Source: an uncultured Acetobacteraceae bacterium
GTDB taxonomy: Bacteria > Pseudomonadota > Alphaproteobacteria > Acetobacterales > Acetobacteraceae
NCBI GenBank assembly: GCA_964247685.1
Contig: CAXTVZ010000001.1
Coordinates: 56,800-120,799 of the forward strand
Reading direction: 5' to 3'
DNA length: 64,000 nt
The position numbers and the translations under genes are program-made. Below are positions 3,164 through 63,294 of this stretch, in pieces; positions within the stretch are counted from its first letter, which is position 1, and the number at the start of each line of letters is the position of its first letter. The notes beneath the pieces are model-generated. The model had not been told where the DNA came from. It searched no databases and was given only the letters and a program-made list of their open reading frames with translations.

Positions 3164-3180
3164 CTGTGTGCCTCCGATGC

Positions 3181-3204
3181 GCCTGGGGACCAGCCCCCCT
3201 TGGC
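3181..3204 (-). promoter_or_regulatory. leader stem-loop box
   Basis: GCCAAGGGGGGCTGGTCCCCAGGC on coding strand, ends 17 nt before GTG 3163. Confidence 0.6.
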
Positions 3205-3212
3205 GAGTGTTG

Positions 3213-3241
3213 GTGCTACGCGCTTTCCGCGCGCATGGCAA
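3213..3241 (-). promoter_or_regulatory. promoter-like repeat with conserved spacer
   Basis: TTGCCA-tgcgcgcggaaagcgcg-TAGCAC (6+17+6), 8 nt upstream of leader box. Confidence 0.5.
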
Positions 3242-6499: not shown

Positions 6500-6597
6500 C
6501 GCTTTGTTACGCTGTCGCCCGGCCCGGTGTGCCGGCGGCATGGTCGACGTTTCCTCCCTAAACTTGGCGCGGACCGGATCGGCCCGCGCTTTTTTTT
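6500..6597 (+). ncRNA. candidate sRNA or 3'UTR-derived RNA with anti-SD motif
   Basis: GC hairpin region, single-stranded UUUCCUCCCUAAA (6550-6562), then intrinsic terminator; no convincing ORF. Confidence 0.2.
6567..6597 (+). terminator. rho-independent terminator
   Basis: GCGCGG-accggatcggc-CCGCGC followed by T8 (6590-6597). Confidence 0.7.
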
Positions 6598-6850
6598 GCT
6601 CAGTGCATGCCGCCGCCAGACACGGGCGCGCCCACCGGCACGCCAGCGACACGCGCGGTGTTCCACTTGTGGGCGTAGTGGCCGTCGACCTTGATCGCGC
6701 CGTCCTGAACGCTCGGTCGACCGCCGCGACAACGCCTACGGATCGTATCGCTTCTTTCACCGCCCGGTGGCCGCCCAGCAGGCGTAGGTGCGCCTGACCG
6801 GCAGGCGGCGAGAGACAGCGAGGTATTTTGCGGTTTTCGCAAAGAACTGC

Positions 6851-14237: not shown

Positions 14238-15557
14238 ATGACAGTGCGCGTGCTCGTCGGATCGGCGCTAGAGTTGCTGCGCGGCCTGCCGTCGGACAGC
14301 GTGCACGCCTGCGTCACCAGCCCGCCCTACTACGGCCTGCGCTCATACCTGCCGGACGGGCACCCGGACAAGGCGCTCGAGCTGGGGCTCGAGGACACGC
14401 CCGACGCCTACGTGGCGCGCATGGTAGAGGTGTTTCGCGAGGTGCGCCGCGTGCTGCGCCCGGACGGCGTGTGCTGGCTCAACCTGGGCGACAGCTACGC
14501 CGGCGGTGGAAACGGCGGCGGTGGGTCGTTTGCAATCGATGACGAGCGAGCCGCCGACCTTGGCATCGACAAGAACGTCGCCGGCCGGTCGGGCCGGCGC
14601 GGATGCGGTGCCGGCATCAAGCCGAAAGATCTCATGATGATGCCGGCGCAGGTCGCCATCGCGCTGCGCGCCGACGGCTGGTGGCTTCGGTCGGAGACGA
14701 TCTGGCACAAGCCGAGTCCGCTGACCGAGAGCTGCAACGACCGGCCGACGTCAGCGCACGAGAAGGTCTACCTGCTCACGAAGTCGGAGCGCTACGCCTA
14801 CGACGCCGAAGCGATAGCCGAGCCGATCGTCGAGTCCTCCGCGAAGCGGCTGAGCCAGAACGTCCAGGCGCAGCTTGGAAGTTCGCGCGCGAACGACGGC
14901 CTGCGAAGGACCGGCAACATGAAGGCGGTGGGCTACGCGACGCGCAATGCTCGCAACGTGTGGACCATCGCTCGCCAGCCGTTCGACGGCCCGCATTTCG
15001 CGACGATGCCGCCGAGGCTGGCCGAGCTCTGCGTCAAGTCGGGCACCAGCGAGCACGGTGCCTGCGCACATTGCGGCGCGCCCTTCGAACGCATGATCGA
15101 GAAAGGCGAGCCGGACCTCGAAGCCGCTCGCCGCTGCGGTGCCAACTCGTTCGGCGGCTACCACGGCACGGCCACGAAGCACTACGCCGGCGCCGGCGTG
15201 CAAGTGCCAGGCGACGTCAAGGCGCGCATCCTGGCGGGCATGCGACCGAAGATCACGGTCGGCTGGCAGAGGCCCTGCGGCTGTCCTGACGCGCCGCCGG
15301 TGCCGTGCACCGTGCTCGACCCGTTCGGCGGCGCCGGTACCACCGGCCTCGTCGCCGACCGGCTCGGCCGCAACGCCATCCTGATCGAGCTCAACCCGGA
15401 GTCCGCCGAACTGGCGCGCGCGCGTATTCGCGGCGACGCGCCGCTGTTCACCGACGTCACGGCCGCGCACCCGCCGCGACAGGATGACCTCGCCGCCGAT
15501 GTCGGCGGCGCGATGTGCCAAACCCTCGATACCGAAAAGGAACCGCAATGCGCGTAG
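14238..15557 (+). CDS. DNA methyltransferase, beta class (N4-C or N6-A), SPPY type
   Basis: VTSPPYYGLRSY catalytic motif near N-terminus, VLDPFGGAGTTGLVA SAM motif near C-terminus, Cys-rich insert CAHCG...CGC. Confidence 0.85.
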   Translation: MTVRVLVGSALELLRGLPSDSVHACVTSPPYYGLRSYLPDGHPDKALELGLEDTPDAYVARMVEVFREVRRVLRPDGVCWLNLGDSYAGGGNGGGGSFAIDDERAADLGIDKNVAGRSGRRGCGAGIKPKDLMMMPAQVAIALRADGWWLRSETIWHKPSPLTESCNDRPTSAHEKVYLLTKSERYAYDAEAIAEPIVESSAKRLSQNVQAQLGSSRANDGLRRTGNMKAVGYATRNARNVWTIARQPFDGPHFATMPPRLAELCVKSGTSEHGACAHCGAPFERMIEKGEPDLEAARRCGANSFGGYHGTATKHYAGAGVQVPGDVKARILAGMRPKITVGWQRPCGCPDAPPVPCTVLDPFGGAGTTGLVADRLGRNAILIELNPESAELARARIRGDAPLFTDVTAAHPPRQDDLAADVGGAMCQTLDTEKEPQCA

Positions 15558-31641: not shown

Positions 31642-32256
31642 GTGCAAGCGCCGCAGGAACCTCGCCAGCACCTAGTCGGCTACGCGCGGGTCTCAATGAG
31701 CGATCAGAACACCCAGCGCCAGATAGACGAGCTGAAGGCTTTCGGGGTGGCCGAGAGCGACATTTTCCAGGACACGAAATCCGGCAAGACGATGAACCGG
31801 CCGGGCTGGAAGAACCTCTGGCGGGACGTGCGCGAGGGCGACCTGCTCGTGGTCCATGCGCTCGACCGCCTCGGCCGCGACATGCTGGAGGTGATGGCGA
31901 TCCTGGACGAGCTGGATCGCCGCAAGGTCCAGGTGAAGATACTCACCTTCGGGCTCGACACCCGCACGCCGATGGGCCGGTTCGTCCTGAGCATCTTGCT
32001 TTCTGTGGCCGAACTGGAGCGCAACATGATCGTGGAACGCACCCGGCACGGCCTGGCGAAGGCGCGGGAGCGCGGGCGGATCGGCGGGCGGCCCGAACGG
32101 CTAAGCGAGGCGAAGGTGCTGGAGGCCATCCGGCGCGAGAAGGCCGGCGAGTTTCTAAGCGACATCGCCAAGGAGTTCGGGGTGGGCCGGAACACTCTCT
32201 ACAAGCGGCGGAAAGACACGATGGACGCGCAGCGAGCCAAGGAGAAAGCAAAGTGA
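31642..32256 (+). CDS. serine recombinase, invertase/resolvase type with C-terminal HTH
   Basis: LVGYARVSMSDQNTQRQ, VVHALDRLGRD, ERNMIVERTRHGLAKARERGRIGGRP, SDIAKEFGVGRNTLYKRR; GTG start after GAGAGGGA. Confidence 0.9.
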   Translation: MQAPQEPRQHLVGYARVSMSDQNTQRQIDELKAFGVAESDIFQDTKSGKTMNRPGWKNLWRDVREGDLLVVHALDRLGRDMLEVMAILDELDRRKVQVKILTFGLDTRTPMGRFVLSILLSVAELERNMIVERTRHGLAKARERGRIGGRPERLSEAKVLEAIRREKAGEFLSDIAKEFGVGRNTLYKRRKDTMDAQRAKEKAK

Positions 32257-42464: not shown

Positions 42465-42477
42465 CAACATATTGTTG
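42465..42477. promoter_or_regulatory. CAACA-N3-TGTTG palindrome, inverted flank orientation
   Basis: CAACAtatTGTTGtgtc, only 30 nt before ATG 42508. Confidence 0.45.
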
Positions 42478-43525: not shown

Positions 43526-43885
43526 GTGCCGCTCGGCGTTCGCCGCGCTGCCGAGCGGTTCGCGCGGCGCTGGCCGCAGTTTGGCACGCCGGAGGGCGCC
43601 TACTACGCCTGCGAGGACGCGAGCCGCTTGTTCGCGATGCACACGCGCGGCGCGGTCGTCGTGCACGCGCTCGGCAGCCGCCGGCCGTTTCCGCGCGCCT
43701 ACGCTGAGTGGCGGGAATACGGCACGCTGGACCGCAACCTCTATCACGTCGTCTGCCGGATCGGCCGCTGGTATGTCGACGTGACGCGCAGGCAGATGGA
43801 GCCGAATGCTGCATACCCATTCATCCAGCACGAGCGGCAATTTCGGCGCGAGTGGCGTCAGATCAGCACAGAGGCACTTGTATGA
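43526..43885 (+). CDS. hypothetical protein
   Basis: GTG 43526 after AAGG; internal start of ORF 43460..43885. Confidence 0.5.
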   Translation: MPLGVRRAAERFARRWPQFGTPEGAYYACEDASRLFAMHTRGAVVVHALGSRRPFPRAYAEWREYGTLDRNLYHVVCRIGRWYVDVTRRQMEPNAAYPFIQHERQFRREWRQISTEALV

Positions 43886-44232
43886 GCGAGAACGACAACT
43901 CGGCAGACGCCGACAATAAGGTCTTCGACCTGATGGCCGAGATCTATCCGGAGCCGGCAAAGTACCGCCTAGGCAAGTTTACGGTGTCGCTTCACCTGAT
44001 CGAAAAACGCTTGGACCTCGTCAAAGCCATGGTCGAGGGCTGCGTGGTCGTCAGCGCTAAAGTCTGCTGGCACCGCAACGCCATCGAATACGTGGCCCTG
44101 CACGACGATTTCGACTTGTGCACAAAAGTCGAGACAACACCTTATTACTCCGCCGCTATGGCGTGCCTAGAAGGCCGAACGTTCAAGCGCGAGTGGAGGC
44201 GCGAGGCCGGCTCCGTCTGGCTTCCGCTGTAA
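43882..44232 (+). CDS. hypothetical protein
   Basis: ATGA overlap. Confidence 0.5.
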   Translation: MSENDNSADADNKVFDLMAEIYPEPAKYRLGKFTVSLHLIEKRLDLVKAMVEGCVVVSAKVCWHRNAIEYVALHDDFDLCTKVETTPYYSAAMACLEGRTFKREWRREAGSVWLPL

Positions 44233-44238
44233 CGAAGC

Positions 44239-44267
44239 TTGCAAGCGCGGTGACTTTGCGCGAACGT
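44239..44267 (+). promoter_or_regulatory. promoter-like repeat, variant spacer
   Basis: TTGCAA-gcgcggtgactttgcgc-GAACGT, 6 nt upstream of leader box. Confidence 0.4.
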
Positions 44268-44273
44268 AACGCC

Positions 44274-44295
44274 GCCAGGGGCGCCGTGCCCGGGC
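44274..44295 (+). promoter_or_regulatory. leader stem-loop box
   Basis: GCCAGGGGCGCCGTGCCCGGGC, ends 18 nt before GTG 44314. Confidence 0.55.
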
Positions 44296-44313
44296 GAAGC
44301 CGAGGACCTGCCC

Positions 44314-47300
44314 GTGCAGCAACTTAACTTTTTTGAGGTGCAGGCGCCGCGCGTCAGCGCCGCAACGCCGCCGGCGGAAAACTTTTCCCTACTCGACTCA
44401 GCCGAGCAAGGCCGCGGCCTGGCAAAGACGTGGAAGGAGCGCGCGGCCGACAACATCGCCGCCATCCGGCTTGCGCAACGCATAGAGGCCGAGTTCCGGC
44501 CCGCAACGCTGGCCGAGTGTGCCCAGCTCATCCGCTTCGTCGGCTTCGGCGCGTCGGACTTGGCAAACAGCCTGTTTCCCACAAAGGCCGGCGCTTTCGG
44601 TCAGGGATGGGAACAGCTGGGCCAGGCGTTGCACGCAGTGGCCGGCCGCGAGGTGACGGCGCTCGCGCGCGCAACGCAGTACGCGCACTTCACCCCGGAA
44701 TACATCGTCACGGCCATGTGGGATGCGGTGCGCCGCTTCGGCTTCGATGGCGGCCGCGTGCTCGAACCAGGCTGCGGCACCGGCCTGTTCCTGGCGCTGG
44801 CGCCAAAAGCCATCGCGCAGGCGTCGGTCTTCGTGGGCATCGAGCGTGATCCGATAACCGCTCGCATCGCGCGGTTGCTGCATCCTTTGGCGCACATCGA
44901 GACGGCTGATTTCGGGCAACGTCACCTGCCGCGCTGCGCCGAGCCGTTCGACCTGGTGATTGGCAACCCGCCGTTCTCCGACCGGACGGTAACGGCCGAC
45001 GACGCCGAGGGTGCCGGCAAGCTCGGGCTGTCGCTGCACGAGTTCTTCATCCTGCGCGCCGTGCGCATGCTGCGGCCTGGCGGGCTCGGTGCCTTTGTCA
45101 CCAGCCGCTACCTCATGGACAAGGGGTCGGATCTTGCCCGCGCGGTGCTGGCCGCCGATGCCGAGCTGCTCGGCGCGATCCGGCTGCCGCGCGGCAGCAT
45201 GCGCGCCGCAGCGGGCACCGACGTGGTGGTCGACCTGCTGTTCCTTCGCCGGCGCGATAAGCGGGGCGCGCACCCGCTGAGCAAGCCCTGGGTCGCGCTT
45301 GGCAGCGTTGCCTGCACCGGCCTGGCGACGAGTTGCACCGTCAACAGCTTCTTCGCCGAGACGCCCGAGGCGGTGCTCGGCAACCATGCCTTTGTCAGCA
45401 GCCAGCACGGGCCGGCCTACACGTGCGCGCCGGAGCCTGGCCTGGACCTGCCGGGCGAGCTCGCGGCCGCTGCCGAGCGTCTAGCGTCCGAGCAGGCGTT
45501 CTGGCCAGCGGACGCCGTGCTGGACGCCGACGAGGCCGACCCCGTGCCCGACGTGAACGTGCGCAGCGTGGCCGACGGAGGCACCCTGCGCGAAGGCTCC
45601 TACTTCGTGGACACGGATCGGCTCTGGCAGATCGTGGACGGCCGCGCGGTGGCGGTGGCGGTCAAGGCGGGCCGCGGCACCGAGGGCATCTTCCAGAGCC
45701 ACGCGGCCATCATCCGCGGCCTCATCCCGATCCGCGACGCGGTGCGCGACGTGCTGCGGGCGCAGGTGCGCAACTCGGCGTCATGGGCGGCCGAAGCGGC
45801 GCGCCTTCGGGGCGCCTACGACGCCTTTGTCAAGAAGCACGGGCCGATCAACCACACAGTGCTGTCCACCACCACGGTCGACGACGTGGTGCGGGTGACA
45901 GACCCGGAGACCGGGGAGGTGCTCAGCGAGACGCTGGAGCAACGCGAGCGCACCACCGCGCGGCGGCCGAACCTCGCGCCGTTTCTCGACGACCCTGACG
46001 TCTGGCTGGTGTCCTCGATTGAGAGCTACGACGTCGACACCGGCATCGCCAAGCCGGGCGCGGTGTTTACCGAGCGGGTCATTCGCCAGCCCACCGAGCC
46101 GGTCATCGCCAGCGCCGCCGACGCCCTGGCGGTGGTGCTCAACGAGGTGGGCCGGGTCGACATCCCGCGCATCGGCGGGCTCATCTTCAAGCCGCCGGCG
46201 GAGGTCATACGCGAGCTCGGCGCCGCCATCTTCGAGGACCCGGAGACGGAGCAGTGGGTCACTGCGGACGCCTATCTGTCCGGCGCGGTGCGCGGCAAGC
46301 TGAAGACCGCGCAACGCGCGGCGGCGGAGGCCGGCGCCCGCTACCAGCGCAACGTCGAGGCGTTGGAGGCCGTGCAGCCGACCGACCTCAAGCCGTCGGA
46401 AATTACCGCTAGGCTGGGCGCGCCGTGGGTGCCCGTGCCGGTCGTCGAGCGCTTCATTCTCGAGGTCATGCGGGTGCGCACGACCGTCCACCACACGCCC
46501 GCCGTGGCGTCGTGGACCGTCGAGCAGCCGCCGTTCAAAGGCAACGCAGCCAGCACGTCGGAGTGGGGCACGCAGCGCCGGCACGCCGGCGACCTGCTGG
46601 AGGACGCGCTGAACGCGTCCATCCCACGAATTTACGACGTCGAGCGCGACAGTTCCGGCAAGGAGATCCGCACTTTCAACGCGGCTGCCACCGAGGCGGC
46701 AAAGGAGAAGCTCGAAAAGATCAAGCGGGCCTTTGAGGCTTGGGTCTGGAAAGAGCCGTCGCGCGCCGACAGGCTGGTTCGGATCTACAACGACGACTAC
46801 AACAACTTGGTGCCGCGCCACTTCGACGGCGCGCACCTGCAGTTGCCCGACGCCAGCGGCATCATCGAGATGCGGCCGCACCAGAAGCGCGGCGTCTGGC
46901 GCGTCATCACTGCGGGGTCCACCTACCTTGCGCACGCCGTGGGTGCCGGCAAAACCTTCCTGATGGCCGCGGCGCTGATGGAGCAGAAGCGGCTCGGCCT
47001 TGTCAGCAAGCCCATGATGGTCGTGCCCGGGCACTGCCTGGCGCAAGCCGCGCGCGAGTTCCTGATGCTCTACCCGACGGCGCGCATCCTGGTCGCCGAC
47101 GAGACCAACTTCGTCAAGGAAAAGCGCCAGCGCTTCATCGCGCGCGCGGCCACCGGCAACTGGGACTGCATCATCCTGACGCACTCCGCCTTCAAGTTCA
47201 TCCCCGCGCCCGGCGCGTTCGAACGCAGCATGATCAACGAGCAGCTGGCCAACTACGAGGAGCTCCTGCTGTCGGTCGACGAAAACGACCGCGTGGGCCG

Positions 47301-49374
47301 CAAGCGGTTGGAGCGGCTGAAAGAGGGCTTCGAGGAACGCCTTGACCGGCTGTCCTCGCGCAAGGACGACGTGGTCACCATTGCCGAAATCGGCGTGGAT
47401 CAGATCGTCGTCGACGAGGCGCAGGAGTTCCGCAAGCTCTCGTTCGCAACCAACATGGGCACGCTGCGCGGCATCGATCCGGACGGCTCGCAGCGCGCTT
47501 GGGACCTCTACGTCAAGGTCAAGTTCATCGCCCAGTCGAACCCGACGCGGCCGCTGATCATGGCGTCCGGCACGCCTATCACGAACACCATGGGCGAGCT
47601 GTTCACCCTCATGCGCTTCATGCACGAGGTAGGGCTGATCGACCGGCTGGTGCACCAGTTCGACGCCTGGGCGTCGACCTTCGGCGAGACGCGCACCGAT
47701 CTCGAGCTGCAGCCATCGGGCCTCTACAAGCCGGCCACCAGGTTCAGCCAGTTCGTCAATGTGGCAGAGCTGATCGCGATGTTCCGCGCGGTGGCCGACG
47801 TCGTGCTGAAAGACGACCTGCGCGGCTACATGAAGCTGCCGCGCATCAAAGGCGGCAAGCGGCAAATCCTGACGTTCAAGCCGACGCCCGCCTTCCGCGC
47901 CTACCAGAAGGAACTCGCGCACCGCATCGCCCTGATCGAGCAGCGCAAGGGGATGCCGAAAAAAGGCCAGGACATCATCCTGTCGGTCATCGGCGACGGC
48001 CGGCACGCGGCGCTGGACATGCGCTTCACCGGCCCGGACGCCGAGAACGAGCCCGAAAACAAGCTGAACGGGCTCATCGCGAACGCCTTTAAAATTTGGC
48101 AGGAGACCAGCGGCTACCGCTACACAAACCCGGCAACCGGGGAAGCCTATCCGCTGCCCGGTGCCACGCAGATGATCTTTTCCGACCTCGGCACTCTGAA
48201 CGCCGTGGCAACGCGTGGCTTCTCCGCCTACGCGTGGATCCGCACCGAGCTGATCCGGCTCGGCGTGCCGGCGGAGCAGATCGCCATCATCCACCACTAC
48301 AAGCGCGCGGCCGAGAAGCTGGCGCTTTTTGCCGACCTTAACAGCGGTCGAAAGCGCTTCGTCATCGGTTCGAGCGAAAAGATGGGCACCGGCGTCAACG
48401 CGCAGCAACGTCTGATCGCGATGCACCACCTTGACGTTCCCTGGCTGCCGTCCTGGATCGAACAGCGGGAAGGGCGCATCGACCGGCAGGGCAACCAGAA
48501 CGACGAAATCGGCCTGTTTGCCTATGCGACGACTGGCAGCATGGACGCGCCAATGTGGCAGTTCAACGAGAGAAAGGCGCGTTTCATTGCCGCGGCGCTG
48601 TCGGGCGACCGCTCCATCCGCCGGCTCGACGACGTCGGCGACACCGTCGACCAGTTTGCTTTTGCCAAGGCGCTATCGAGCGGCGACGCGCGCCTGATGC
48701 AGAAGGCCGGGCTCGAAGCTGAGCTTGCCCGCCTGCATCGGCTGAAGGACTCGCACTTCGACGACCAATACAACGTGCGTCAGCGCGTCGACGGCGCGCG
48801 CGGCACGATCGTGCGCTGTCAAAAGCGCATTCCGCTGCTGGAGATGGACCTCGACAATCGCGTGGACACCCGCGCGGACCTGTTCCAGATGACGGTTGAC
48901 GGCAAGGCCTACACCGAGCGCAAGGCGGCCGGCGCCGCCTTGCTGGCGTTCGCGCGCGCCCGCAAAGCCGGCATGCAGGACGGCGAGTGGACTATCGCGC
49001 AGCTGGGCGGGTTCGCCGTGAAGCTGGACAGCGAAGTCCTTGTCGAGCGGTCGCGCGGCAAGGAGGTCGCCCGGTCGTGGTTCGCCCACCTTTGGATCAT
49101 GTTTAGCGCCGAGCCGACGAGGGTATCGGCGGACGTGGCGGCCCTAGAGCCGCTCGGCTTGGTCGCGCGGCTGGAGAACGCCGTGCGTGCTCTCGACTAC
49201 GACCTGACAACGACGCAGACGCGCCTGGCGGACGCCGAGAAGGACCTCCGGGAGTTCGAGGCGATGCTGCAGGACACCTTCGAGTTTCAGGACGAACTCG
49301 ATGCCAAAACCGACGAGCTGTTGACCCTCAACGAGTCCCTGGCGCGCAACACGGAAGCCCCTGTTTTGCTCTAG
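44314..49374 (+). CDS. N6-adenine DNA methyltransferase fused to SNF2-family helicase (DarB-like giant protein)
   Basis: LEPGCGTGLFLA, VIGNPPFSD; AVGAGKTFLM, VVDEAQEFRK, MASGTPITNTMGELF, QREGRIDRQGN; 1686 aa. Confidence 0.9.
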   Translation: MQQLNFFEVQAPRVSAATPPAENFSLLDSAEQGRGLAKTWKERAADNIAAIRLAQRIEAEFRPATLAECAQLIRFVGFGASDLANSLFPTKAGAFGQGWEQLGQALHAVAGREVTALARATQYAHFTPEYIVTAMWDAVRRFGFDGGRVLEPGCGTGLFLALAPKAIAQASVFVGIERDPITARIARLLHPLAHIETADFGQRHLPRCAEPFDLVIGNPPFSDRTVTADDAEGAGKLGLSLHEFFILRAVRMLRPGGLGAFVTSRYLMDKGSDLARAVLAADAELLGAIRLPRGSMRAAAGTDVVVDLLFLRRRDKRGAHPLSKPWVALGSVACTGLATSCTVNSFFAETPEAVLGNHAFVSSQHGPAYTCAPEPGLDLPGELAAAAERLASEQAFWPADAVLDADEADPVPDVNVRSVADGGTLREGSYFVDTDRLWQIVDGRAVAVAVKAGRGTEGIFQSHAAIIRGLIPIRDAVRDVLRAQVRNSASWAAEAARLRGAYDAFVKKHGPINHTVLSTTTVDDVVRVTDPETGEVLSETLEQRERTTARRPNLAPFLDDPDVWLVSSIESYDVDTGIAKPGAVFTERVIRQPTEPVIASAADALAVVLNEVGRVDIPRIGGLIFKPPAEVIRELGAAIFEDPETEQWVTADAYLSGAVRGKLKTAQRAAAEAGARYQRNVEALEAVQPTDLKPSEITARLGAPWVPVPVVERFILEVMRVRTTVHHTPAVASWTVEQPPFKGNAASTSEWGTQRRHAGDLLEDALNASIPRIYDVERDSSGKEIRTFNAAATEAAKEKLEKIKRAFEAWVWKEPSRADRLVRIYNDDYNNLVPRHFDGAHLQLPDASGIIEMRPHQKRGVWRVITAGSTYLAHAVGAGKTFLMAAALMEQKRLGLVSKPMMVVPGHCLAQAAREFLMLYPTARILVADETNFVKEKRQRFIARAATGNWDCIILTHSAFKFIPAPGAFERSMINEQLANYEELLLSVDENDRVGRKRLERLKEGFEERLDRLSSRKDDVVTIAEIGVDQIVVDEAQEFRKLSFATNMGTLRGIDPDGSQRAWDLYVKVKFIAQSNPTRPLIMASGTPITNTMGELFTLMRFMHEVGLIDRLVHQFDAWASTFGETRTDLELQPSGLYKPATRFSQFVNVAELIAMFRAVADVVLKDDLRGYMKLPRIKGGKRQILTFKPTPAFRAYQKELAHRIALIEQRKGMPKKGQDIILSVIGDGRHAALDMRFTGPDAENEPENKLNGLIANAFKIWQETSGYRYTNPATGEAYPLPGATQMIFSDLGTLNAVATRGFSAYAWIRTELIRLGVPAEQIAIIHHYKRAAEKLALFADLNSGRKRFVIGSSEKMGTGVNAQQRLIAMHHLDVPWLPSWIEQREGRIDRQGNQNDEIGLFAYATTGSMDAPMWQFNERKARFIAAALSGDRSIRRLDDVGDTVDQFAFAKALSSGDARLMQKAGLEAELARLHRLKDSHFDDQYNVRQRVDGARGTIVRCQKRIPLLEMDLDNRVDTRADLFQMTVDGKAYTERKAAGAALLAFARARKAGMQDGEWTIAQLGGFAVKLDSEVLVERSRGKEVARSWFAHLWIMFSAEPTRVSADVAALEPLGLVARLENAVRALDYDLTTTQTRLADAEKDLREFEAMLQDTFEFQDELDAKTDELLTLNESLARNTEAPVLL

Positions 49375-49379
49375 TGACA

Positions 49380-49392
49380 CAACAAAATGTTG
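49380..49392. promoter_or_regulatory. CAACA-N3-TGTTG palindrome
   Basis: gacaCAACAaaaTGTTGcg; TTGCGT-N17-CATATT with spacer CTCGCCC-ggt-GGGCGAG. Confidence 0.55.
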
Positions 49393-49461
49393 CGTCTCGC
49401 CCGGTGGGCGAGCATATTATCGACACACCGAGGCAACATCGCCAGGTGCAGCGCGGAGCGA

Positions 49462-49584
49462 ATGATGACGGCAGGATCCCCCGGCGAAAACCCCAATCCC
49501 CCGTATCAGGACGACCCGGTGAGGGTGCTGCTGCGCGTCGCCTTCATCTTCACCGTCTGCAACTACATCTGGCTGCACCTCTGA
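49462..49584 (+). CDS. small hydrophobic-tail peptide
   Basis: 40 aa; GGAG upstream; stop overlaps next start (TGATG). Confidence 0.35.
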   Translation: MMTAGSPGENPNPPYQDDPVRVLLRVAFIFTVCNYIWLHL

Positions 49585-50480
49585 TGGCGGCAGGCCTGTT
49601 GGCACACCGAAGCGGTGCGCAGGCGTCGTTGCTCGGGCCGGTCGCGTCGTCGCGCCGCCCGTCAGCCGAGGGCACCGCCGGCGCGGGCCTGAACCCGGAT
49701 CTTGACCAGTACTTCACCCCGACATGGGTGGCCGAGGCGCTGGTTGAGCAGTTTTTCCCAACGCTGGCGACCGATTTCGTTGTGGACGCCGGGTGCGGGC
49801 ACGGCGCGTTTTTGGGCGCCCTTCCGGCCAGCGTGGACGCGCTCGGGGTTGAGATCGACCCCGAGGCCGCCGCCATCGCTAGGCGCAACACCGGGCGACT
49901 GGTCCTGACGGGCGACTTTTTGGACGTCGAGCTCACGCGCCAGCCCACCATGATCATCGGCAACCCGCCGTTCCGCGAGGCGATCCTCGACGCGATGCTG
50001 GCGCGCGCGCACCTGCTGCTGCCGCGGGGCGGCCAGGTCGGGTGGGTGCTGCCGGCCTACGTCTTTCAGACGCCGTCGCGCGTGCTGGCGATGGCCGAAC
50101 GGTGGAGCATCGAGAGCAAGGCCATGCTGCCGCGCACGCTCTACCGCGGGCTGAAGGAGCCGCTCGCCTTCATGGTGTTCACCAAGGACGGCCGCAGGCT
50201 GCTGCAGGGCTTCGCCCTCTATCGGGAGGCGGCCGAGGTGGCCGCGCTGAGCGAGGCCTACCGGGTGGTGCTGTCTCGCGCGCCGCGCTCGGCGTGGGTG
50301 CGGTGCGTGGCCGATGCGGTGCGCACGATGGGCGGCACGGCGACGCTGCCCCAGATCTACGCCGAGATCGGCGGCCGCCGGCCGTCGCAGACGACCTGGT
50401 GGCGCGAGAAGGTCCGGCAGGTCGCGCAGGCACACCTCGTCCGGCTCGACAGCGGCACTTACGGGTTGGCGGCGAGGTGA
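49584..50480 (+). CDS. N6-adenine DNA methyltransferase (NPPF type) with C-terminal wHTH-like tail
   Basis: DQYFTPTWVA, VVDAGCGHGAF, IIGNPPFRE. Confidence 0.75.
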   Translation: MAAGLLAHRSGAQASLLGPVASSRRPSAEGTAGAGLNPDLDQYFTPTWVAEALVEQFFPTLATDFVVDAGCGHGAFLGALPASVDALGVEIDPEAAAIARRNTGRLVLTGDFLDVELTRQPTMIIGNPPFREAILDAMLARAHLLLPRGGQVGWVLPAYVFQTPSRVLAMAERWSIESKAMLPRTLYRGLKEPLAFMVFTKDGRRLLQGFALYREAAEVAALSEAYRVVLSRAPRSAWVRCVADAVRTMGGTATLPQIYAEIGGRRPSQTTWWREKVRQVAQAHLVRLDSGTYGLAAR

Positions 50481-51802
50481 CTCGGGTGGCGGCGGATTTG
50501 CCTTTTGCGGAGTTGCTGCGGGCCGAGGCGGCCAAGGTCGCCTTGCGGCTGCAGGAGTTGGACCGGCAGGCGCAGGCGATCCGCGCAGAGGCGACAGGCC
50601 TGATCGCCAAACAGGAGGCTATGCGACCGCTGCTCGACGCCTACCAGGGCGAGTTCGAGACGACGCCGCCCGTGCGGCTGCTGACCGTCGACCCGGGTGT
50701 TTCGGCGCCGCAGGCGGCGCGCAGAAGCGGCCCGCCGGCGCGCATGTGGACGGAAGAGCGAAAGACGCTGCTGGCCGAGCTCTGGCCAAAGGGGGCTTCG
50801 TCACGCGCGGTGGCGGACGCGCTGAACAGGCTGCCGGGTACCGCCATCGAGCCCAAGCGGGTGGGTCCCAAGGCAGCCATTCTGCGGATCTACCGGAGCC
50901 CGGATGGGGGGCACCCCGGCCGGCGACCCGCGCTGACCGCGCCGGGCGGCGTCACGCCGGTGCCGGCGACGCGCCGGCCTGCTGGTCGAGTAGCGCGCTT
51001 TGCCAACAAGACGAGTCACCCAGCCAACCGCGAAGCCGCCTGCCTGCCGGCCGACCACTGGGCGATACAGGCGAGCGCATCGCAGTTCCGGACGCGGGTG
51101 TTCGCGCCCGCAGACGTGCCGCGCGTGCTGATTTCCGGGGAGAACTCGGCCAAGGTCGGCAAGCGCGTCACCAAGGGCCCGTGGGCGGGCATGCAACTCC
51201 ACACGCTCACGCTTGAGGAGCGGGCGACGTGCCCGAGCAGCTGCGGCCTGCTGCGCGAGTGCTACGGCAACGCCATGCCGTTCGCCCGTCGGCTGAAGCA
51301 CGGCCAGGCGCTGGTCGATCGGCTGGACCAGGAGCTGCGACTCAAGGCCGCCGAATATCCGGCGGGCTTTGTCGTGCGCCTGCACGTGCTGGGCGATTTC
51401 TACTCCGAAGACTACGTCTCGACCTGGGGCGGCTGGCTGGCGGACATCCCGCAGCTGCGCGTCTTCGGCTACACCGCCCACCAGGCGCGAACGCCGATCG
51501 GCGCGATGCTGCTGCGTCTCAACGAGGTATTCGCTGGCAGGTGCGCAATTCGCACCAGCGTCGAGCCCGACGCCGACCCCGAACCGATGCAGGCCACAAC
51601 GATCTGGCGTCAGCCGGAGGGCCGCGTCGTGCCGGAGGGCACCATCTGCCCGGCGATGACCGGCGGCACGGAGGCCTGCGCCACCTGTGGGCTTTGCTGG
51701 CACCCTGTGGCGGCCGCGCGGCGCATCGTCTTCATCGGCCACGGCATGACTCGCCGGTCGAGCGACGCGCAGCCTTTGGACGGCCAGGAGCAAGCGGCGT
51801 GA
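50477..51802 (+). CDS. GcrA-like DNA-binding domain fused to Cys-rich C-terminal domain
   Basis: GTGA overlap; MWTEERKTLLAELWPKGASSRAVADALN matches GcrA N-terminus (SWTDERVSTLKKLWLDGLSASQIAKQLG); CPSSCGLLRECYGN and CPAMTGGTEACATCGLCWH. Confidence 0.6.
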   Translation: MTRVAADLPFAELLRAEAAKVALRLQELDRQAQAIRAEATGLIAKQEAMRPLLDAYQGEFETTPPVRLLTVDPGVSAPQAARRSGPPARMWTEERKTLLAELWPKGASSRAVADALNRLPGTAIEPKRVGPKAAILRIYRSPDGGHPGRRPALTAPGGVTPVPATRRPAGRVARFANKTSHPANREAACLPADHWAIQASASQFRTRVFAPADVPRVLISGENSAKVGKRVTKGPWAGMQLHTLTLEERATCPSSCGLLRECYGNAMPFARRLKHGQALVDRLDQELRLKAAEYPAGFVVRLHVLGDFYSEDYVSTWGGWLADIPQLRVFGYTAHQARTPIGAMLLRLNEVFAGRCAIRTSVEPDADPEPMQATTIWRQPEGRVVPEGTICPAMTGGTEACATCGLCWHPVAAARRIVFIGHGMTRRSSDAQPLDGQEQAA

Positions 51803-52071
51803 GAGCGGTCCAGGCGCTTAGTGCGCAAGCGGCGCGGTGCCAGCCTGGCAGGCCGGCCGTGCTCACGGCCGATCAGGTCGCCGTCGGCGACATGCTGATG
51901 CGCGACGGCTACCCGGTCGAGGTGCGGCAGAAAATGTTGAGCCCGGACGGCCAGGTTTGCACGCTCGCCTGGGGCGAGGCGCGGGGCGAAATGATCATCG
52001 TGCTAACGGCCACGCCGCTCAGCGTGGTGGTTGGCGTCTGTTACGCGGGGGCTGTCTGGCATGAGCGTTGA
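51799..52071 (+). CDS. hypothetical protein
   Basis: GTGA overlap. Confidence 0.45.
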   Translation: MRAVQALSAQAARCQPGRPAVLTADQVAVGDMLMRDGYPVEVRQKMLSPDGQVCTLAWGEARGEMIIVLTATPLSVVVGVCYAGAVWHER

Positions 52072-52606
52072 AGACCTGCTGCCGACGGTGCCGGTGAGGT
52101 TCGACCTAGCGGCGGCCGAGCACGCGGCCGACGCCTGGGGCTGCAACTGCGGACCTGGTGCGCTTGCGGCGATGACTGGGCTGACGCTTGACGAGGTGCG
52201 CCCTTGTCTCGGCGACTTCGAGGTGAAGCGCTACACGAACCCCACCCTGATGTTCGAGACGCTGCGGCGGCTCGGGGTGTCCTACACCGTAGAGCGTCGC
52301 CTGCCGCTTGACTGGCCGCGGCACGGCTTGGTCCGGATTCAATGGGGCGGCCCATGGATGGCCGACGGCGTGCCTATCGGCGCGCGCTATCGGCAGACGC
52401 ACTGGGTGGGCGCCCGTCACACTCGCGGTCGGGCGGAGGTGTTCGACATCAACTGCATCAACGTCGGCGGCTGGGTGCCGATGGACACCTGGACGGCCGT
52501 GGTAGTGCCCTGGCTGCTACGCGAAGCCGTGCCGAGAGCCGACGGCTCGTTCTCGCTAACGCACGTCGTCGAGGTGAGCACCGCGCTGGCCGGTCGCGAG
52601 CATTGA
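52061..52606 (+). CDS. papain-fold (C39-like) cysteine peptidase-like protein
   Basis: AWGCNCGPGALAAMTG candidate Cys, QTHWVGA candidate His. Confidence 0.45.
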   Translation: MSVEDLLPTVPVRFDLAAAEHAADAWGCNCGPGALAAMTGLTLDEVRPCLGDFEVKRYTNPTLMFETLRRLGVSYTVERRLPLDWPRHGLVRIQWGGPWMADGVPIGARYRQTHWVGARHTRGRAEVFDINCINVGGWVPMDTWTAVVVPWLLREAVPRADGSFSLTHVVEVSTALAGREH

Positions 52607-53474: not shown

Positions 53475-53487
53475 CAACAAAATGTTG
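53475..53487. promoter_or_regulatory. CAACA-N3-TGTTG palindrome
   Basis: CAACAaaaTGTTG; TTGCGA-N17-TAACGC. Confidence 0.55.
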
Positions 53488-57416: not shown

Positions 57417-58085
57417 ATGGCGACGAAATCCACGGCCAAGTCCCCGGCGCCGCGCGCTCAGAAGCTTTTCGACACCGAGGCCAAGCCGCTCGTTGTCACC
57501 TACCTGCCGCTGAAGTCGCTGATCCCTTACGCGCGCAACTCGCGGACGCACAGCCGCTCAAACATCCAGAAGATCAAGGCCAGCCTTGTCGAGTATGGGT
57601 GGGCGACGTCGATGGGCATCGCCGACGGCGGCATGCTCTACGGCCACGGCCGCTTGTCTGCCGCACTCGAGCTTGCCGACGAAGGCGTGCCGATTCCGTT
57701 CAATCCGGACCCGCTGCTCGGCCCGACGGTCGACCTGTCGCACCTCAACGAGATGCAGCGCCGCGCCTACGTCATCCAGGACAACCGCTCGGCGCTCGAC
57801 GCCGGCTGGGACGAGGACCTGCTGCGCTTCGAAATGGGCGAGCTGAAGAACGCCGGCTTCGACCTCAGCTTAACCGGCTTCGACTTGCCCGAGCTCACGA
57901 ACATCCTCACCGGTCAGTCGGCCGAGCCAGCGAAGGACGAGGAGGAAGAAGCCTCCCCCGCCGACGCCGGCAACTACAAGGAGCAGTATGGCGTGATCGT
58001 CATGTGCACCGGCGAGGATCACCAGAAGGTGGTCTTCGAGAAGCTGAAGGACATGGGCATGGACGTTCGGATCGTCGCCACCTGA
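57417..58085 (+). CDS. ParB-like nuclease (ParB/Srx) domain protein
   Basis: LIPYARNSRTHS and MLYGHGRLSAA. Confidence 0.8.
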   Translation: MATKSTAKSPAPRAQKLFDTEAKPLVVTYLPLKSLIPYARNSRTHSRSNIQKIKASLVEYGWATSMGIADGGMLYGHGRLSAALELADEGVPIPFNPDPLLGPTVDLSHLNEMQRRAYVIQDNRSALDAGWDEDLLRFEMGELKNAGFDLSLTGFDLPELTNILTGQSAEPAKDEEEEASPADAGNYKEQYGVIVMCTGEDHQKVVFEKLKDMGMDVRIVAT

Positions 58086-59239
58086 TGCGTATCGAGGTCC
58101 GCAACCGCTGCTCCGACTTCGACAGCTACCGCGCAGCGCGCGTCAAGTCGCTGTTCAACGCTGAGACCGGCTGCAACTTTACGCTCGACGCAGACATGCC
58201 GGTCGAGGACCGACCGTGGACGATCGGCGTGGTGGTCGGGCCGTCCGGGTCGGGCAAGACCAGCATCGGCCGGCGGATCTTTGGCGGCGAGGCGTTCTAC
58301 GAACCCGGCTGGCGCGACGACGCGCCGGTTGTCGACTGCATCGCCCCCGACGGCGACTTCAACGAGGTGACGGCCGCGCTGGCGGCGGTGGGCCTGGGCG
58401 ACGTGCCGTCCTGGTTGCGCCCCTACGCGGTGCTGTCGAACGGCGAGAAGTTCCGCGCCGACCTGGCGCGCATCGTCGCGGAGAAGCCCGAGCACGTGGT
58501 CATCGACGAGTTCACCTCAGTCGTGGACCGGCAGATTGCCAAGATCGGCGCGCTCGCGTTTCAGAAGTCCTGGCGCCGCACCAAGGGTCAGGCCGTGCTG
58601 CTGTCCTGTCACTATGACGTCTTGGAATGGGTGCAGCCGGATTGGGTGTTCGACACCCAGCGGCGAGAGTTCGATTGGGTGCGTCTTCAACGGCCCAGAA
58701 TCGAGCTGGAAATTAGGCAGACAGACGGAAGTTACTGGCCGCTCTTTGCTCCACATCACTATCTGAAGCTGCCGCGCATGGTCGCCGCAACGTATTACGT
58801 TGGAGTGATCAACGGCGAGCCAGTGGCGCACCTTGGCGTGGCGCCCAAGCTGGAAAGCAACGGCATGCGGGCGAGCCGGCTGGTCATCATGCCGGAGTGG
58901 CAGGGCGCCGGCGTCGGGCTTCGCTTCCTCAACGCCATTTCCGAGATCCACTTGCGCGGCGAAGGGAAGTACGGCGACCGCGTTAAGACGATGTTCTTTG
59001 GCACGTCGCATCCAGGCCTGTGCTCGGCTCTCCGCCGCGACCCTCGCTGGGAGCAGACGGCCTGCGAGCTCTACGGTCAGAACAAGCTGAGATCCGTGGC
59101 GTCGGTCCAAAAGAGTGCACGCCAGGCGGGGCGCGGCCTCATACAGGCCGGTTTTGGCGGACATTTCCGCGCGGTTCAGGGGTTCGCCTACCGTCGGTCG
59201 ACGATGCGCTACCTAGAACAGCAAAAGGCCGCCGCGTGA
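58085..59239 (+). CDS. ABC-type ATPase fused to GNAT acetyltransferase-like domain
   Basis: VVGPSGSGKTS, LSNGEKFRADLAR, VVIDEFTSVVD; C-terminal RLVIMPEWQGAGVGLRFL (GNAT motif A); TGATG overlap. Confidence 0.7.
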   Translation: MRIEVRNRCSDFDSYRAARVKSLFNAETGCNFTLDADMPVEDRPWTIGVVVGPSGSGKTSIGRRIFGGEAFYEPGWRDDAPVVDCIAPDGDFNEVTAALAAVGLGDVPSWLRPYAVLSNGEKFRADLARIVAEKPEHVVIDEFTSVVDRQIAKIGALAFQKSWRRTKGQAVLLSCHYDVLEWVQPDWVFDTQRREFDWVRLQRPRIELEIRQTDGSYWPLFAPHHYLKLPRMVAATYYVGVINGEPVAHLGVAPKLESNGMRASRLVIMPEWQGAGVGLRFLNAISEIHLRGEGKYGDRVKTMFFGTSHPGLCSALRRDPRWEQTACELYGQNKLRSVASVQKSARQAGRGLIQAGFGGHFRAVQGFAYRRSTMRYLEQQKAAA

Positions 59240-59934
59240 CGCCGCTGCGCATCATCTTCTGCGGTCAGCGCTCGTTCGGCGCAGCCGCGCTCGAGGCGCT
59301 GCTCAAGGCCGGCCACCAGGTGCTCGCCGCCTACGTGCCGGAACCGGGTGCCGACCAGCGCGGGCTCGACCGGGCGCTGATGGCCGCCGACCGGCTGCGG
59401 GTGCCCATCAGGCACGGCCTGCGGGCCGCCACGATGCCCGCCGACGCCGACCTCGTCGTCTGCGCGCACAGCCACGACTTCGTCTCCGCGCCGACGCTGC
59501 GGAAGACCCGCTTGGGCGGCATCGGCTACCACCCTTCCCTGTTGCCGCGGCATCGCGGCCGCGACGCCGTGGAGTGGACGGTGCGCATGGGTGACCGGGT
59601 GACCGGCGGTTCCGTCTACTGGCTGTCCGACACCGTCGACGCTGGCCCGCTGGCGGCGCAGCGCCACGTCATGGTGCGCCCGGCCGACACCGCCTCGGAG
59701 CTCTGGCGGCGCGAGCTATTCCCCCTCGGCGTCCGGCTGCTCGCCAGCGCGTGCCGCGACATCGCCGCCGGCAGGCTGGTCACCGTGCCACAAGACGAAG
59801 CGTGCGCGACGTGGGAGCCGTCGATCGGACGCGCGCCACTGTTCCGGCCGGACCTGCCGATGCTGGCCGCACCTGGCAGCGCCGGCATGGCCCACATCGT
59901 GTCGTGGGACGCGGCCTCAGACCAGGCCGCGTAG
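59236..59934 (+). CDS. formyltransferase (Fmt/PurN-like)
   Basis: IIFCGQRSFG and GYHPSLLPRHRGRDAVEW; GTGA overlap. Confidence 0.8.
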   Translation: MTPLRIIFCGQRSFGAAALEALLKAGHQVLAAYVPEPGADQRGLDRALMAADRLRVPIRHGLRAATMPADADLVVCAHSHDFVSAPTLRKTRLGGIGYHPSLLPRHRGRDAVEWTVRMGDRVTGGSVYWLSDTVDAGPLAAQRHVMVRPADTASELWRRELFPLGVRLLASACRDIAAGRLVTVPQDEACATWEPSIGRAPLFRPDLPMLAAPGSAGMAHIVSWDAASDQAA

Positions 59935-61448: not shown

Positions 61449-61889
61449 ATGGACGAAACACCGGAAACGCTGCCCGCCAGAAAGCCGCGACGCGGACGAC
61501 CGAAGTTCGAGCCCACCCCGGCGCAACGAGTGACAGCGCTCGCGTTGAAAGCCGCTGGCTCGCCGCACGCCGTGATCGCGTCGATCATGGAAATTCCGCT
61601 GCGGACCTTCGACCGCCATTTCAAGCGGGAGATCGCGCAAGGCCACGAGGAGGTCACCGCGCGCATTGCGCACGGCCTGATTGGACGGGCGCTAGGCGGA
61701 GACAACGACGCGGCCAAGTTCTTCCTGCGAACCCGTGCCGGCTGGACGACGCGCACGGAGGTGACAGGCGCCGAGGGCGGTCCGATTGACATCCGCAACA
61801 TCTCCACTGATCAGCTCACTGCAGCGCTTATCGCCTTCGCAGAGAGCGACGGTGCTGGCGAGGATGGCGCAGGAGCTGAGGAGGCGTAA
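61449..61889 (+). CDS. terminase small subunit-like protein
   Basis: RGRPKFEPTPAQR, HTH segment, AAKFFLRTRAGW; directly upstream of large terminase. Confidence 0.6.
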   Translation: MDETPETLPARKPRRGRPKFEPTPAQRVTALALKAAGSPHAVIASIMEIPLRTFDRHFKREIAQGHEEVTARIAHGLIGRALGGDNDAAKFFLRTRAGWTTRTEVTGAEGGPIDIRNISTDQLTAALIAFAESDGAGEDGAGAEEA

Positions 61890-63294
61890 GACCTGGACGC
61901 CCTTCGCCGGCCCGCAGACGGCGGCGCTCAACAGCGCCGCGGACATCCTGTTCTACGGCGGGGCCGCCGGCGGCGGTAAGACCGACCTCATCTGCGGCGC
62001 GGCCATTACGCGGCATCACAAGTCGATCATCTTCCGGCGCGAGTACGGCGAGCTTGCCGGCATCATGGACCGCGCCGCCGAGCTGCTCGAGGGCCGTGGC
62101 TCCTACAACGGGCAGCGCCGGCTCTGGAAGATCGACGACCAGCAGCGCCGCATGGAATTTGGCGCGGTCCAGTTCGAACAGGACGTGCGCAAGTTTCAGG
62201 GCCGCCCGCACGACCTCAAAGCCTTCGACGAAATCACCAATTTTACCGAGTCGCAGTTCCGCTTCCTGATGGGCTGGAATCGAAGTGCCCGCCCCGGGCA
62301 GCGCTCGCGCGTGATCTGCACCGGCAACCCACCGACCACGGCCGAGGGCGACTGGGTCATCGAGTTCTGGGGGCCCTGGCTTAACAAGACACACCCCAAT
62401 CCGGCGGTTCAGGGCGAGCTGCGCTGGTTCGCGACGGTCGCTGGCAAAGACGTCGAGGTTGCGGATTCGACGCCCTTCAAGGTCAAGGGTGAGGAAGACC
62501 TGATCACGCCGAAGTCGCGGACGTTCATCCGCGCTCGCGTGCAGGACAACCCGGTCTACATGGCGTCGGGTTACCTGGCGACCTTGCAGGCGCTGCCCGA
62601 GCCGCTGCGCTCGCAGATGCTGTTTGGCGACTTCTCCGCCGGCCAGGACGACGCGCCGCGCCAGGTCATTCCGACGGCGTGGGTGCTCGCGGCACAGGCG
62701 CGGTGGACGGAGAAGCCGCCTGCCCCGATTTCTGCGCTGGGCGTCGACGTGGCCCGCGGCGGTGCCGACAAGACCGTCATCACGCCCCGCCACGGCGTCT
62801 GGTTCGGCAAGCAGCTGTCGCATCCCGGCAGCACCACCCCGGACGGTCGCGTGGTCGCGCAGATGTGCCTGGAGGCCATCCCAACCGGCACCGCACCGTC
62901 GGTGCAAATCGACATCACCGGCGTCGGGTCGAGCCCCTACGACATGGCGCTGATGCTTGGCATGCGCGCGGCGGCCATGAACGGCTCCGCCCGCAGCGAT
63001 GCCACCGACAAGAGCGGGCGGTTGGGCTTTTTAAACGCCCGCGCCGAATGGTGGTGGCTGCTGCGCGAGGCGCTCGACCCTGACGTGGGCGAGGACCTCG
63101 CCATTCCGCCGGACCGCGAACTGCTGGCCGACCTGACCGCGCCGCGCTGGCAGCCCTGCACTAAGGGCATCCAGATCGAGAGCAAGGACGACATCAAGTC
63201 GCGCATCGGCAGGTCGCCCGATAAGGGCGAGAGCCTTGTCTACGCTTTCGGGCGCGCGACCCAGGCCTACGACGATACGATGAGCTGGGTCTGA
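61864..63294 (+). CDS. terL: terminase large subunit
   Basis: Walker A LFYGGAAGGGKTD, KAFDEITNF Walker B-like, C-terminal nuclease-sized domain; start ATG 61864 inside ORF 61786..63294. Confidence 0.9.
   Translation: MAQELRRRKTWTPFAGPQTAALNSAADILFYGGAAGGGKTDLICGAAITRHHKSIIFRREYGELAGIMDRAAELLEGRGSYNGQRRLWKIDDQQRRMEFGAVQFEQDVRKFQGRPHDLKAFDEITNFTESQFRFLMGWNRSARPGQRSRVICTGNPPTTAEGDWVIEFWGPWLNKTHPNPAVQGELRWFATVAGKDVEVADSTPFKVKGEEDLITPKSRTFIRARVQDNPVYMASGYLATLQALPEPLRSQMLFGDFSAGQDDAPRQVIPTAWVLAAQARWTEKPPAPISALGVDVARGGADKTVITPRHGVWFGKQLSHPGSTTPDGRVVAQMCLEAIPTGTAPSVQIDITGVGSSPYDMALMLGMRAAAMNGSARSDATDKSGRLGFLNARAEWWWLLREALDPDVGEDLAIPPDRELLADLTAPRWQPCTKGIQIESKDDIKSRIGRSPDKGESLVYAFGRATQAYDDTMSWV

Follow-up and report, generated by a model that had tools for sequence, protein, structure and literature searches.

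The pairing of an adenine methylase with an SNF2-type helicase is among the commonest modules of the polyvalent proteins of phages and plasmids; its archetype is DarB of phage P1, and modules of the DarB type are widespread in phages and conjugative elements (Iyer et al. 2017, PMC5512222). GcrA of Caulobacter crescentus reads methyl-adenine and the bases of GANTC through residues R33, N34, I37, G38, H41 and R42, and without its sigma-70-interacting domain it does not promote open-complex formation (PMC5887438). GcrA homologs encoded by phage phiCbK, such as gp222, are reported to be detectable members of the GcrA family (pfam07750; PMC3556154). We analyzed a stretch of 64,000 nucleotides (the window) from contig CAXTVZ010000001.1 of an uncultured Acetobacteraceae bacterium, which appears to be a segment of a large phage or prophage. 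Positions 44239–51802 hold, side by side, genes for a giant methylase-helicase, a small methylase and a third protein with a short GcrA-like segment, and an earlier note took them for one promoter-delimited epigenetic module in which methylases write adenine marks and the third protein reads them to reprogram transcription. We arrive, with moderate confidence, at another view: these are three functionally separate genes, of which the first is a DarB-type anti-restriction gene, the second an orphan adenine methylase co-inherited with it, and the third a separate acquisition.

A DarB-Type Methylase-Helicase

44314–49374, + strand: giant DarB-like protein of 1686 amino acids (aa), with an N-terminal region, a gamma-class N6-adenine methylase, an SNF2-type helicase and a C-terminal tail rich in coiled coil
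44668–45264, + strand: methylase domain of the giant protein (aa ~119–317), with HFTPE, EPGCGTG (motif I) and GNPPF (motif IV)
46864–48651, + strand: helicase core of the giant protein (aa ~851–1446), with GAGKT, DEAQ, SGTP and QREGRIDRQG

The reading frame bears out the earlier description of a 1686-aa protein that unites the methylase motifs GCGTG (aa 153–157) and NPPF (aa 218–221) with SNF2 helicase motifs (GAGKT at 877, DEAQ at 1034, SGTP at 1085 and QREGR at 1384). Pfam matches the methylase with N6_Mtase (30.8 bits, cut-off 20.4) and Eco57I, and the helicase with ResIII, SNF2-rel_dom and Helicase_C. The likeness to DarB, also proposed earlier, is strongly backed by searches of three kinds. 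The PHROG family phrog_10089 (“DarB-like antirestriction”) matches with E = 0 and 1545 bits; tblastn aligns 97% of the protein at ~39% identity with proteins of Bcep22, BcepIL02, DC1, JC1 and Ralstonia podophages; and BLASTP against P1 DarB itself returns three colinear matches, to the methylase (32% identity, E = 2e-24) and to the N- and C-terminal halves of the helicase (E = 1e-11 and 3e-12). Identity rises to 70% for the homolog in a related metagenomic phage (L005) and is 55% over 1656 aa for a stand-alone protein of an alphaproteobacterial (Bosea) conjugative plasmid, the closest annotated relative among those compared. Judged by these alignments, the identification as a DarB-type methylase-helicase is secure.

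The domain order, methylase then helicase, is the one seen in P1 DarB and in the module termed “LPD36 - adenine methylase - SWI2/SNF2 ATPase” by Iyer et al. (2017, PMC5512222). The protein is shorter, however, than P1 DarB (2255 aa) and much shorter than Bcep22 gp75, the aligned part of gp75 and its relatives being their methylase-helicase part. It spans only positions 1562–3215 of the 4647-position PHROG profile, whose flanking regions are absent. In a second related metagenomic phage, L006, the helicase domain of the DarB-like homolog (L006 883–7176, 2097 aa) is interrupted by a Pfam intein-splicing match that is marked as weak.

By analogy with P1 DarB, the giant protein would be delivered in the virion and act against restriction. 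Its SNF2 motor would travel along phage DNA as this enters the cell, with the adenine methylase modifying that DNA and thereby protecting it in cis from type I-like restriction. Alternatively, the methylase-helicase could belong to a prophage-borne defense system of the DISARM, BREX or MADS type, as weak domain-level matches to the DrmD, BrxH and DpdE helicases and to a MADS methylase would allow. These scores fall far under the family cut-offs (for DrmD, 38 bits vs. 610), however, the seven neighboring proteins scanned with PADLOC gave at most methylase-domain matches, with no nuclease or partner component turning up among them, and the end-to-end homology is to DarB-like phage and plasmid proteins. 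A role in defense is extremely improbable, and on the PADLOC and NCBIfam scores we reject the locus as a defense system.

A Small Adenine Methylase and Its Preceding Reading Frame

49462–49584, + strand: small 40-aa open reading frame (ORF), hydrophobic at its C-terminus, whose TGA shares bases with the ATG of the methylase (TGATG, 49582–49586)
49584–50480, + strand: small gamma-class N6-adenine methylase of 298 aa, with a C-terminal winged-helix-like domain (aa ~213–294)

A second NPPF methylase is present, as had been claimed: a 298-aa ORF with its motifs in the order X - I - IV (YFTP at aa 43, GCGHG at aa 70 and NPPF at aa 127). Its homologs, at least 317, form a well-conserved family of ~270 aa, and those listed align over most of its length; it is 43% identical, over more than 90% of its length, to the “DNA adenine methyltransferase” of phages F116 and phiC725A. 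The best profile matches in the PDB are M.TaqI (E = 1e-4), then the type I M subunit StySJI M and BseCI, and Foldseek searches with the AlphaFold2 (AF2) model, whose predicted local distance difference test (pLDDT) score is 87, place CamA, StySJI M, BseCI and TaqI at the top (~3e-9), so that DNA adenine methylases lead by both structure and profile. In Pfam only the generic MTS model matches (25 bits, cut-off 23), N6_Mtase not being among the matches listed; NCBIfam matches are all far below their cut-offs, and PADLOC matches are to a type II methylase and a MADS methylase. A distant relationship to the methylase of the giant protein is also apparent (33% over 106 aa). Sequence matches and model alike point to an enzyme of adenine-methylase type, of the F116 kind and TaqI/CamA-like.

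The motif order YFTP ... GCGHG ... NPPF is shared with the F116 enzyme, M.TaqI, CamA and M.BseCI, but the protein is much smaller than TaqI, CamA and BseCI (298 aa vs. 421–585), and their large recognition domains are replaced by a short C-terminal unit of ~80 residues that is winged-helix-like in the AF2 model and is probably the target-recognition part. Most likely, the enzyme would methylate replicated phage DNA at a specific adenine motif and so guard it from other restriction systems. Unlike its counterparts in this comparison set, the gene is preceded by a conserved small hydrophobic ORF. The predicted 40-aa peptide has a polar N-terminus and a hydrophobic C-terminus and no Pfam or PHROG family match; its L005 counterpart (37 aa, L005 9891–10004) has a similar hydrophobic tail, and its stop likewise overlaps the start of the methylase gene. 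The peptide may be inserted in the membrane, or it may be a leader that couples translation of the methylase.

Could the substrate be RNA or protein instead of DNA, as in rRNA N6-methyladenine (m6A), tRNA m2G or release-factor glutamine methylation? NPPF/NPPY motifs are found in such enzymes too, PrmC and Erm are among the weak NCBIfam matches, and the Foldseek E-values for METTL5, Erm, KsgA and Trm11 come near those of DNA methylases. The leading profile and fold matches are nevertheless DNA adenine methylases, and the PADLOC matches to type II and MADS methylases, the C-terminal winged-helix-like domain, the C5 DNA methylase that adjoins phage homologs and the linkage to a DarB-like gene all speak for DNA. 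We regard an RNA or protein substrate as quite improbable.

In the two nearest phage relatives, the methylase gene lies directly after the DarB-like gene (L005) or 3 kb after it (L006). Records of Bcep22-like phages (Burkholderia or Ralstonia) yielded no homolog of the small methylase, which indicates that the DarB-methylase linkage is lineage-specific. Within this phage lineage, the small methylase appears to be co-inherited with the DarB-like gene.

A Fusion Protein with a GP88/DUF7227 Domain

50486–51802, + strand: 438-aa fusion protein, with a long N-terminal helix, a GcrA-N-type helix-turn-helix, a disordered linker and a cysteine-rich GP88/DUF7227 alpha/beta domain
50729–50926, + strand: GcrA-N-type helix-turn-helix segment (MWTEERKTLLAELWPKGASSRAVADALNRLPG...)
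50978–51775, + strand: GP88/DUF7227 core, with invariant C249, C253, C259, C388, C401 and C404 and near-invariant C398

The public database starts the third gene at GTG 50486, which gives 438 aa; an alternative GTG at 50477 overlaps the TGA of the methylase (GTGA). The overlaps described earlier, TGATG and GTGA, are accordingly both in the sequence, as is the 40-aa ORF.

Most of the protein that had been called GcrA-like is a GP88/DUF7227 protein, and what stands of the earlier name is a helix-turn-helix of ~50 residues. Pfam GP88 matches at 29.6 bits (cut-off 24.4) and DUF7227 at 29.4 bits (cut-off 27). The core, formed by the C-terminal 270 residues, has more than 2221 homologs and occurs at no fewer than 591 viral loci, and to the best 120 of the more than 2221 the third protein is 40–59% identical. 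All invariant cysteines and the predicted fold are common to phage proteins of GP88 (PF17338) and DUF7227 (PF23872), with a spacing of CX3CX5C after the first strand and of CX9CX2CX2C near the C-terminus. In the AlphaFold model (mean pLDDT 82.6, >90 in the core), a long N-terminal helix is followed by the two short helices of the helix-turn-helix, a disordered linker and the alpha/beta core, and the same architecture of coiled coil, helix-turn-helix and core recurs in homologs P0041, P0034 and P0100. The core matches predicted phage structures in BFVD (E = 4e-19 to 1e-3), including ones named GP88 or DUF7227. Against the PDB, Foldseek gave no significant match to the core and a sequence-profile search nothing meaningful; a literature search found no paper that mentions the GP88/DUF7227 family.

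The GP88/DUF7227 domain probably binds metal or iron-sulfur. A bolder proposal makes the third protein a DNA-targeted iron-sulfur enzyme, possibly related to radical S-adenosylmethionine (radical-SAM) enzymes, that installs or processes a DNA modification, working with the adjacent methylase. Consistent with it are the seven conserved cysteines in their CX3CX5C and CX9CX2CX2C spacing, an alpha/beta core whose weak matches outside the family include BtrN, NifB, viperin and phage iron-sulfur oxidoreductases, the fusion of homologs to varied DNA-binding domains, and a gene placement that may allow translational coupling to the methylase. The weak PDB hits of highest probability are indeed radical-SAM enzymes, with BtrN and NifB at E 0.2–0.3 and a TM-score of at most 0.3. 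Yet every PDB match is nonsignificant (E >0.1, TM-score ≤0.3), the PDB profile search gave no result, the canonical CX3CX2C radical-SAM motif is absent, and no conserved association with the small-methylase family exists. We consider such an enzyme unlikely. A radical-SAM assignment of the core was itself rejected as unproven, given the absence of CX3CX2C, of a Pfam Radical_SAM match and of a significant fold match.

The GcrA-Type Helix-Turn-Helix

Whether a profile search recovers the GcrA-like segment depends on the query. Pfam GcrA scores 14.9 bits against a cut-off of 26.9 on the third protein itself, over residues 90–119 and profile positions 2–31 of 155. A search of 1.8 billion proteins with the 66-aa segment returned 96 relatives with E < 1e-3, and Pfam GcrA is found in 42/70 scanned relatives, often as tandem repeats of a GcrA-type unit. 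A profile of the relatives aligns with residues 3–45 of C. crescentus GcrA at 31.8 bits, and the GcrA DNA-binding domain is the second-ranked PDB match of the segment (E = 0.18). By these profile comparisons, ~50 residues are a true helix-turn-helix of the GcrA-N family, and the homology is real.

It covers the first two DNA-binding helices of C. crescentus GcrA (PF07750), with the pattern WT(D/E)ER...L..LW..G.S...(I/V)A..L. Beyond these helices the two proteins differ. A five-residue LPG-type insertion stands ahead of the recognition helix in the segment, and the third protein (438 aa vs. 173 aa for GcrA) has neither the linker nor the sigma-70-interacting domain of GcrA. Its sub-cut-off match also sets it apart from the phiCbK homologs, which are detectable family members. 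The six residues with which GcrA reads methyl-adenine and GANTC bases, in the order given above, align to P, K, G, P, A and I, in a recognition helix that the AlphaFold model predicts with low confidence. No profile match to the sigma-70-interacting CCCH zinc-finger domain was obtained in the third protein, and no motif of the C.WP.G(D/E)P type was found among the window's reading frames of 40 or more codons; the domain is present in homologs P0082 and P0107.

Among the relatives of the segment (P0241–P0335), many are bacterial or phage proteins with 2–9 tandem GcrA-N-like units that carry an “LN.LPG” insertion, and some combine such units with nuclease-type domains (T5orf172/MUG113). The recognition helix of this subfamily is unlike that of canonical GcrA.

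Synteny and Gene Neighborhoods

Gene order separates the third gene from the two before it. In L005, the closest relative, the DarB-like gene and the small methylase are followed by homologs of the three genes that lie downstream of the third gene here, and neither a GP88 gene nor a helix-turn-helix gene was found in the 21 kilobases (kb) of L005 examined. Its absence from this syntenic site identifies the third gene as an insertion in this lineage, acquired separately, in agreement with the local G+C content, which is raised to 0.714 in the 50–52 kb bin of a window that has ~67% G+C overall.

We then compared 80 viral GP88 loci, which were analyzed on stop-to-stop frames (high-GC loci). Replication and recombination genes are the typical neighbors, among them a CI-like repressor, a RuvC-like nuclease, a GapR-like protein, a beta clamp, DnaB, DUF1376 and SNF2 helicases; these neighbor clusters were named by reading their sequences, except for DnaB and DUF1376, which are Pfam calls in L001. 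The third gene differs from this pattern in sitting after a methylase, and the small-methylase family was found within 6 kb in 0/80 loci. A GcrA-type helix-turn-helix, in contrast, is fused, adjacent or nearby in 11/80. Several GP88 homologs (P0082, P0107) have a complete GcrA at their C-terminus, and one has a GcrA gene immediately upstream.

These observations bear directly on a writer-reader circuit in which the m6A marks of two NPPF methylases are read by the third protein in the manner of GcrA, so that the phage redirects host transcription according to methylation. A GcrA-N-type helix-turn-helix is present, the third gene abuts the methylase, the probable alphaproteobacterial host belongs to the group where GcrA and CcrM operate, and the fusion of some GP88 homologs to a complete GcrA, or their position next to a GcrA gene, indicates that the GP88 family is truly linked to GcrA biology. 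However, all methyl- and base-reading residues of GcrA are replaced, the sigma-70-interacting domain is lacking, the gene is missing from the closest relative, and not one of the 80 GP88 loci has the small-methylase family. Moreover, GcrA reads the GANTC marks of the beta-class enzyme CcrM, not those of gamma-class NPPF enzymes, and the beta-class methylase of this window lies 35 kb off and is not a CcrM equivalog (it matches the CcrM model partially, at 59.8 bits vs. a cut-off of 830). The circuit proposed in the earlier note is very improbable on this evidence, and we do not uphold it.

In the reading that we favor, the third protein would be a DNA-bound early-phase factor, enzyme or regulator, and not a methylation-dependent activator like GcrA. 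The long N-terminal helix probably dimerizes it, and the GcrA-N-type helix-turn-helix would place the GP88/DUF7227 domain on DNA. Assignment to the early phase follows from the position of GP88-domain homologs in early replication and recombination modules of phages.

Palindromes and Probable Transcription Units

49380–49392, + strand: palindrome CAACAAAATGTTG, 6 nucleotides past the stop of the giant gene; candidate promoter/operator
42465–42477, + strand: upstream palindrome copy (CAACATATTGTTG), which precedes the unit ending with the giant gene
53475–53487, + strand: next downstream palindrome copy, which closes the unit made up of methylase, fusion gene and three more genes
49395–49411, + strand: GC-rich hairpin CTCGCCC-GGT-GGGCGAG, with no T-run after it, not conserved in L005 and not called as a terminator

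The palindrome CAACA-N3-TGTTG (consensus cCAACAAAATGTTGCG) occurs in 11 copies in the window, of which seven are exact (5316, 10382, 36910, 39068, 42465, 49380 and 53475) and four have one mismatch (5534, 24626, 46800 and 57308), whereas 0.94 copies are expected and 0/100 shuffles reach 11. Every copy is on the + strand and has an A/T spacer, A-rich in all save one. Nine of the 11 are intergenic, most of them in the gap between a + strand stop, which they closely follow, and the next + strand gene; those inside genes, at 46800 and 5534, may be chance matches. L005 has copies at 250, 4180 and 9803, one of which keeps the place after the DarB-like gene despite differing flanks. This distribution makes the palindrome probably a lineage-specific intergenic promoter or operator.

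An earlier call of a palindrome and promoter at 49380 holds for the palindrome, but a consensus scan of 43800–52400, a range that includes 44239, detected no sigma-70-type promoter. Terminator-like matches in the same range (9 vs. 5.8 ± 2.8 expected) do not exceed chance, none of them lies in an intergenic gap, and the predicted RNA fold of the 49372–49470 leader is not unusual (z = -1.45). No palindrome copy directly precedes the giant gene, the nearest upstream being that at 42465. The copy at 49380 would separate the unit of the giant gene from that of the methylase, which would reach to 53475. If the palindrome is such a boundary, the giant gene belongs to one unit and the methylase and third gene to another, and the single block 44239–51802 that had been proposed breaks up. 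We also considered the third protein as the binder of CAACA-N3-TGTTG and judged this unlikely: L005 has the motif, but no GP88 or helix-turn-helix gene came to light in the portion examined.

Genomic Setting and Other Features of the Window

61852–63294: large terminase, ~50% identical to terminases of Caulobacter podophages and of Bordetella BPP-1
from 63325: fiber-tail adaptor domain
57417–58085: ParB-like gene
31642–32256: DNA invertase
736–1203: second invertase/integrase-like fragment
14238–15557, + strand: beta-class N4/N6-type methylase, with SPPY at aa 28 and FGGAG at aa 363

To few of the other genes in the window can a function be assigned, most having no known function. The giant protein, the small methylase and the third protein each occur once in public data, and megablast of 44000–52200 against phages found no near-identical DNA. 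The methylase at 14238–15557 belongs to phrog_67 (DNA methyltransferase, E = 3e-60); counting it, the window has three methylases, as stated earlier, this SPPY enzyme being of the beta class.

The host of this phage-like genome is probably an alphaproteobacterium, since the giant gene has ~72% DNA identity to genes of Bosea, Bradyrhizobium, Methylosinus and Agrobacterium plasmids and since the window contains a small RNA of the mmgR/suhB family. The suhB/mmgR RNAs are an alphaproteobacterial regulatory family; the match in the window (RF00519 in Rfam, 48.3 bits vs. a gathering score of 41) lies at 6510–6604 on the + strand, within phage-like DNA. Rfam and tRNA scans found no known RNA within 44239–51802.

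Three short sites are scarce across the whole window, GTAC strongly (39 observed vs. 104.5 expected, ratio 0.37) and GANTC (ratio 0.67) and CTAG (0.71) moderately, which may reflect avoidance of host restriction sites. An ABC-type ATPase-like protein (58085–59239; phrog_11143, E = 3e-143) and, after it, a formyltransferase-domain protein (59236–59934) make up an unusual auxiliary pair beside the ParB-like gene, and L005 keeps the pair as well. A protein of 827 aa (17416–19899) with many near-identical Ala/Ser-rich repeats, such as “...AAFDAAGLAAAE..RA...E..LYPA.NP.GFIT...”, is probably a tail fiber.

Discussion

Several points weigh against the reading of three separate genes. The biochemical activities, substrates and timing of the three proteins are all inferred, as is delivery of the giant protein in the virion. 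The giant gene lies ~12 kb from the terminase and not visibly within a structural module, which makes virion packaging uncertain. For the small methylase, near-equal fold scores of rRNA m6A methylases in Foldseek and the weak PrmC and Erm model matches make an RNA or protein substrate possible. Divergent recognition helices can still read methylation by other ways, and the overlap of the third gene with the methylase (GTGA, from GTG 50477), or the gap of 5 nucleotides from GTG 50486, fits co-translation, so a functional link is possible in this phage. Finally, the role of an early DNA-bound factor draws only on neighborhood and fusions, the GP88 domain having no known function.

The giant protein and the small methylase are ordinary for phages, and the third gene is an unrelated insert; the sole mildly new point is the recurrent GP88-GcrA association. 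One could go further and propose that GP88/DUF7227 proteins are a class of early phage proteins, so far undescribed, that act by way of GcrA-type modules, a generalization that we think decidedly unlikely. Under it, coupling to the adjacent methylase might exist in this phage. If, in addition, the core were an iron-sulfur enzyme that GcrA-type modules bring to DNA or to RNA polymerase, it would give phages a new access to the methylation-linked cell-cycle control of Alphaproteobacteria.

The giant protein and the small methylase add a further example of the known DarB-type anti-restriction strategy of phages and conjugative plasmids, and the directional palindrome, which probably marks the transcription units of this phage lineage, can be used for mapping its regulation. 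The repeated fusion or adjacency of GP88/DUF7227 to GcrA modules and other DNA-binding domains, in replication modules, offers a handle on the function of the family. The main value of the locus is a correction: two methylases side by side, even with a short motif like that of GcrA next to them, do not amount to a writer-reader circuit.

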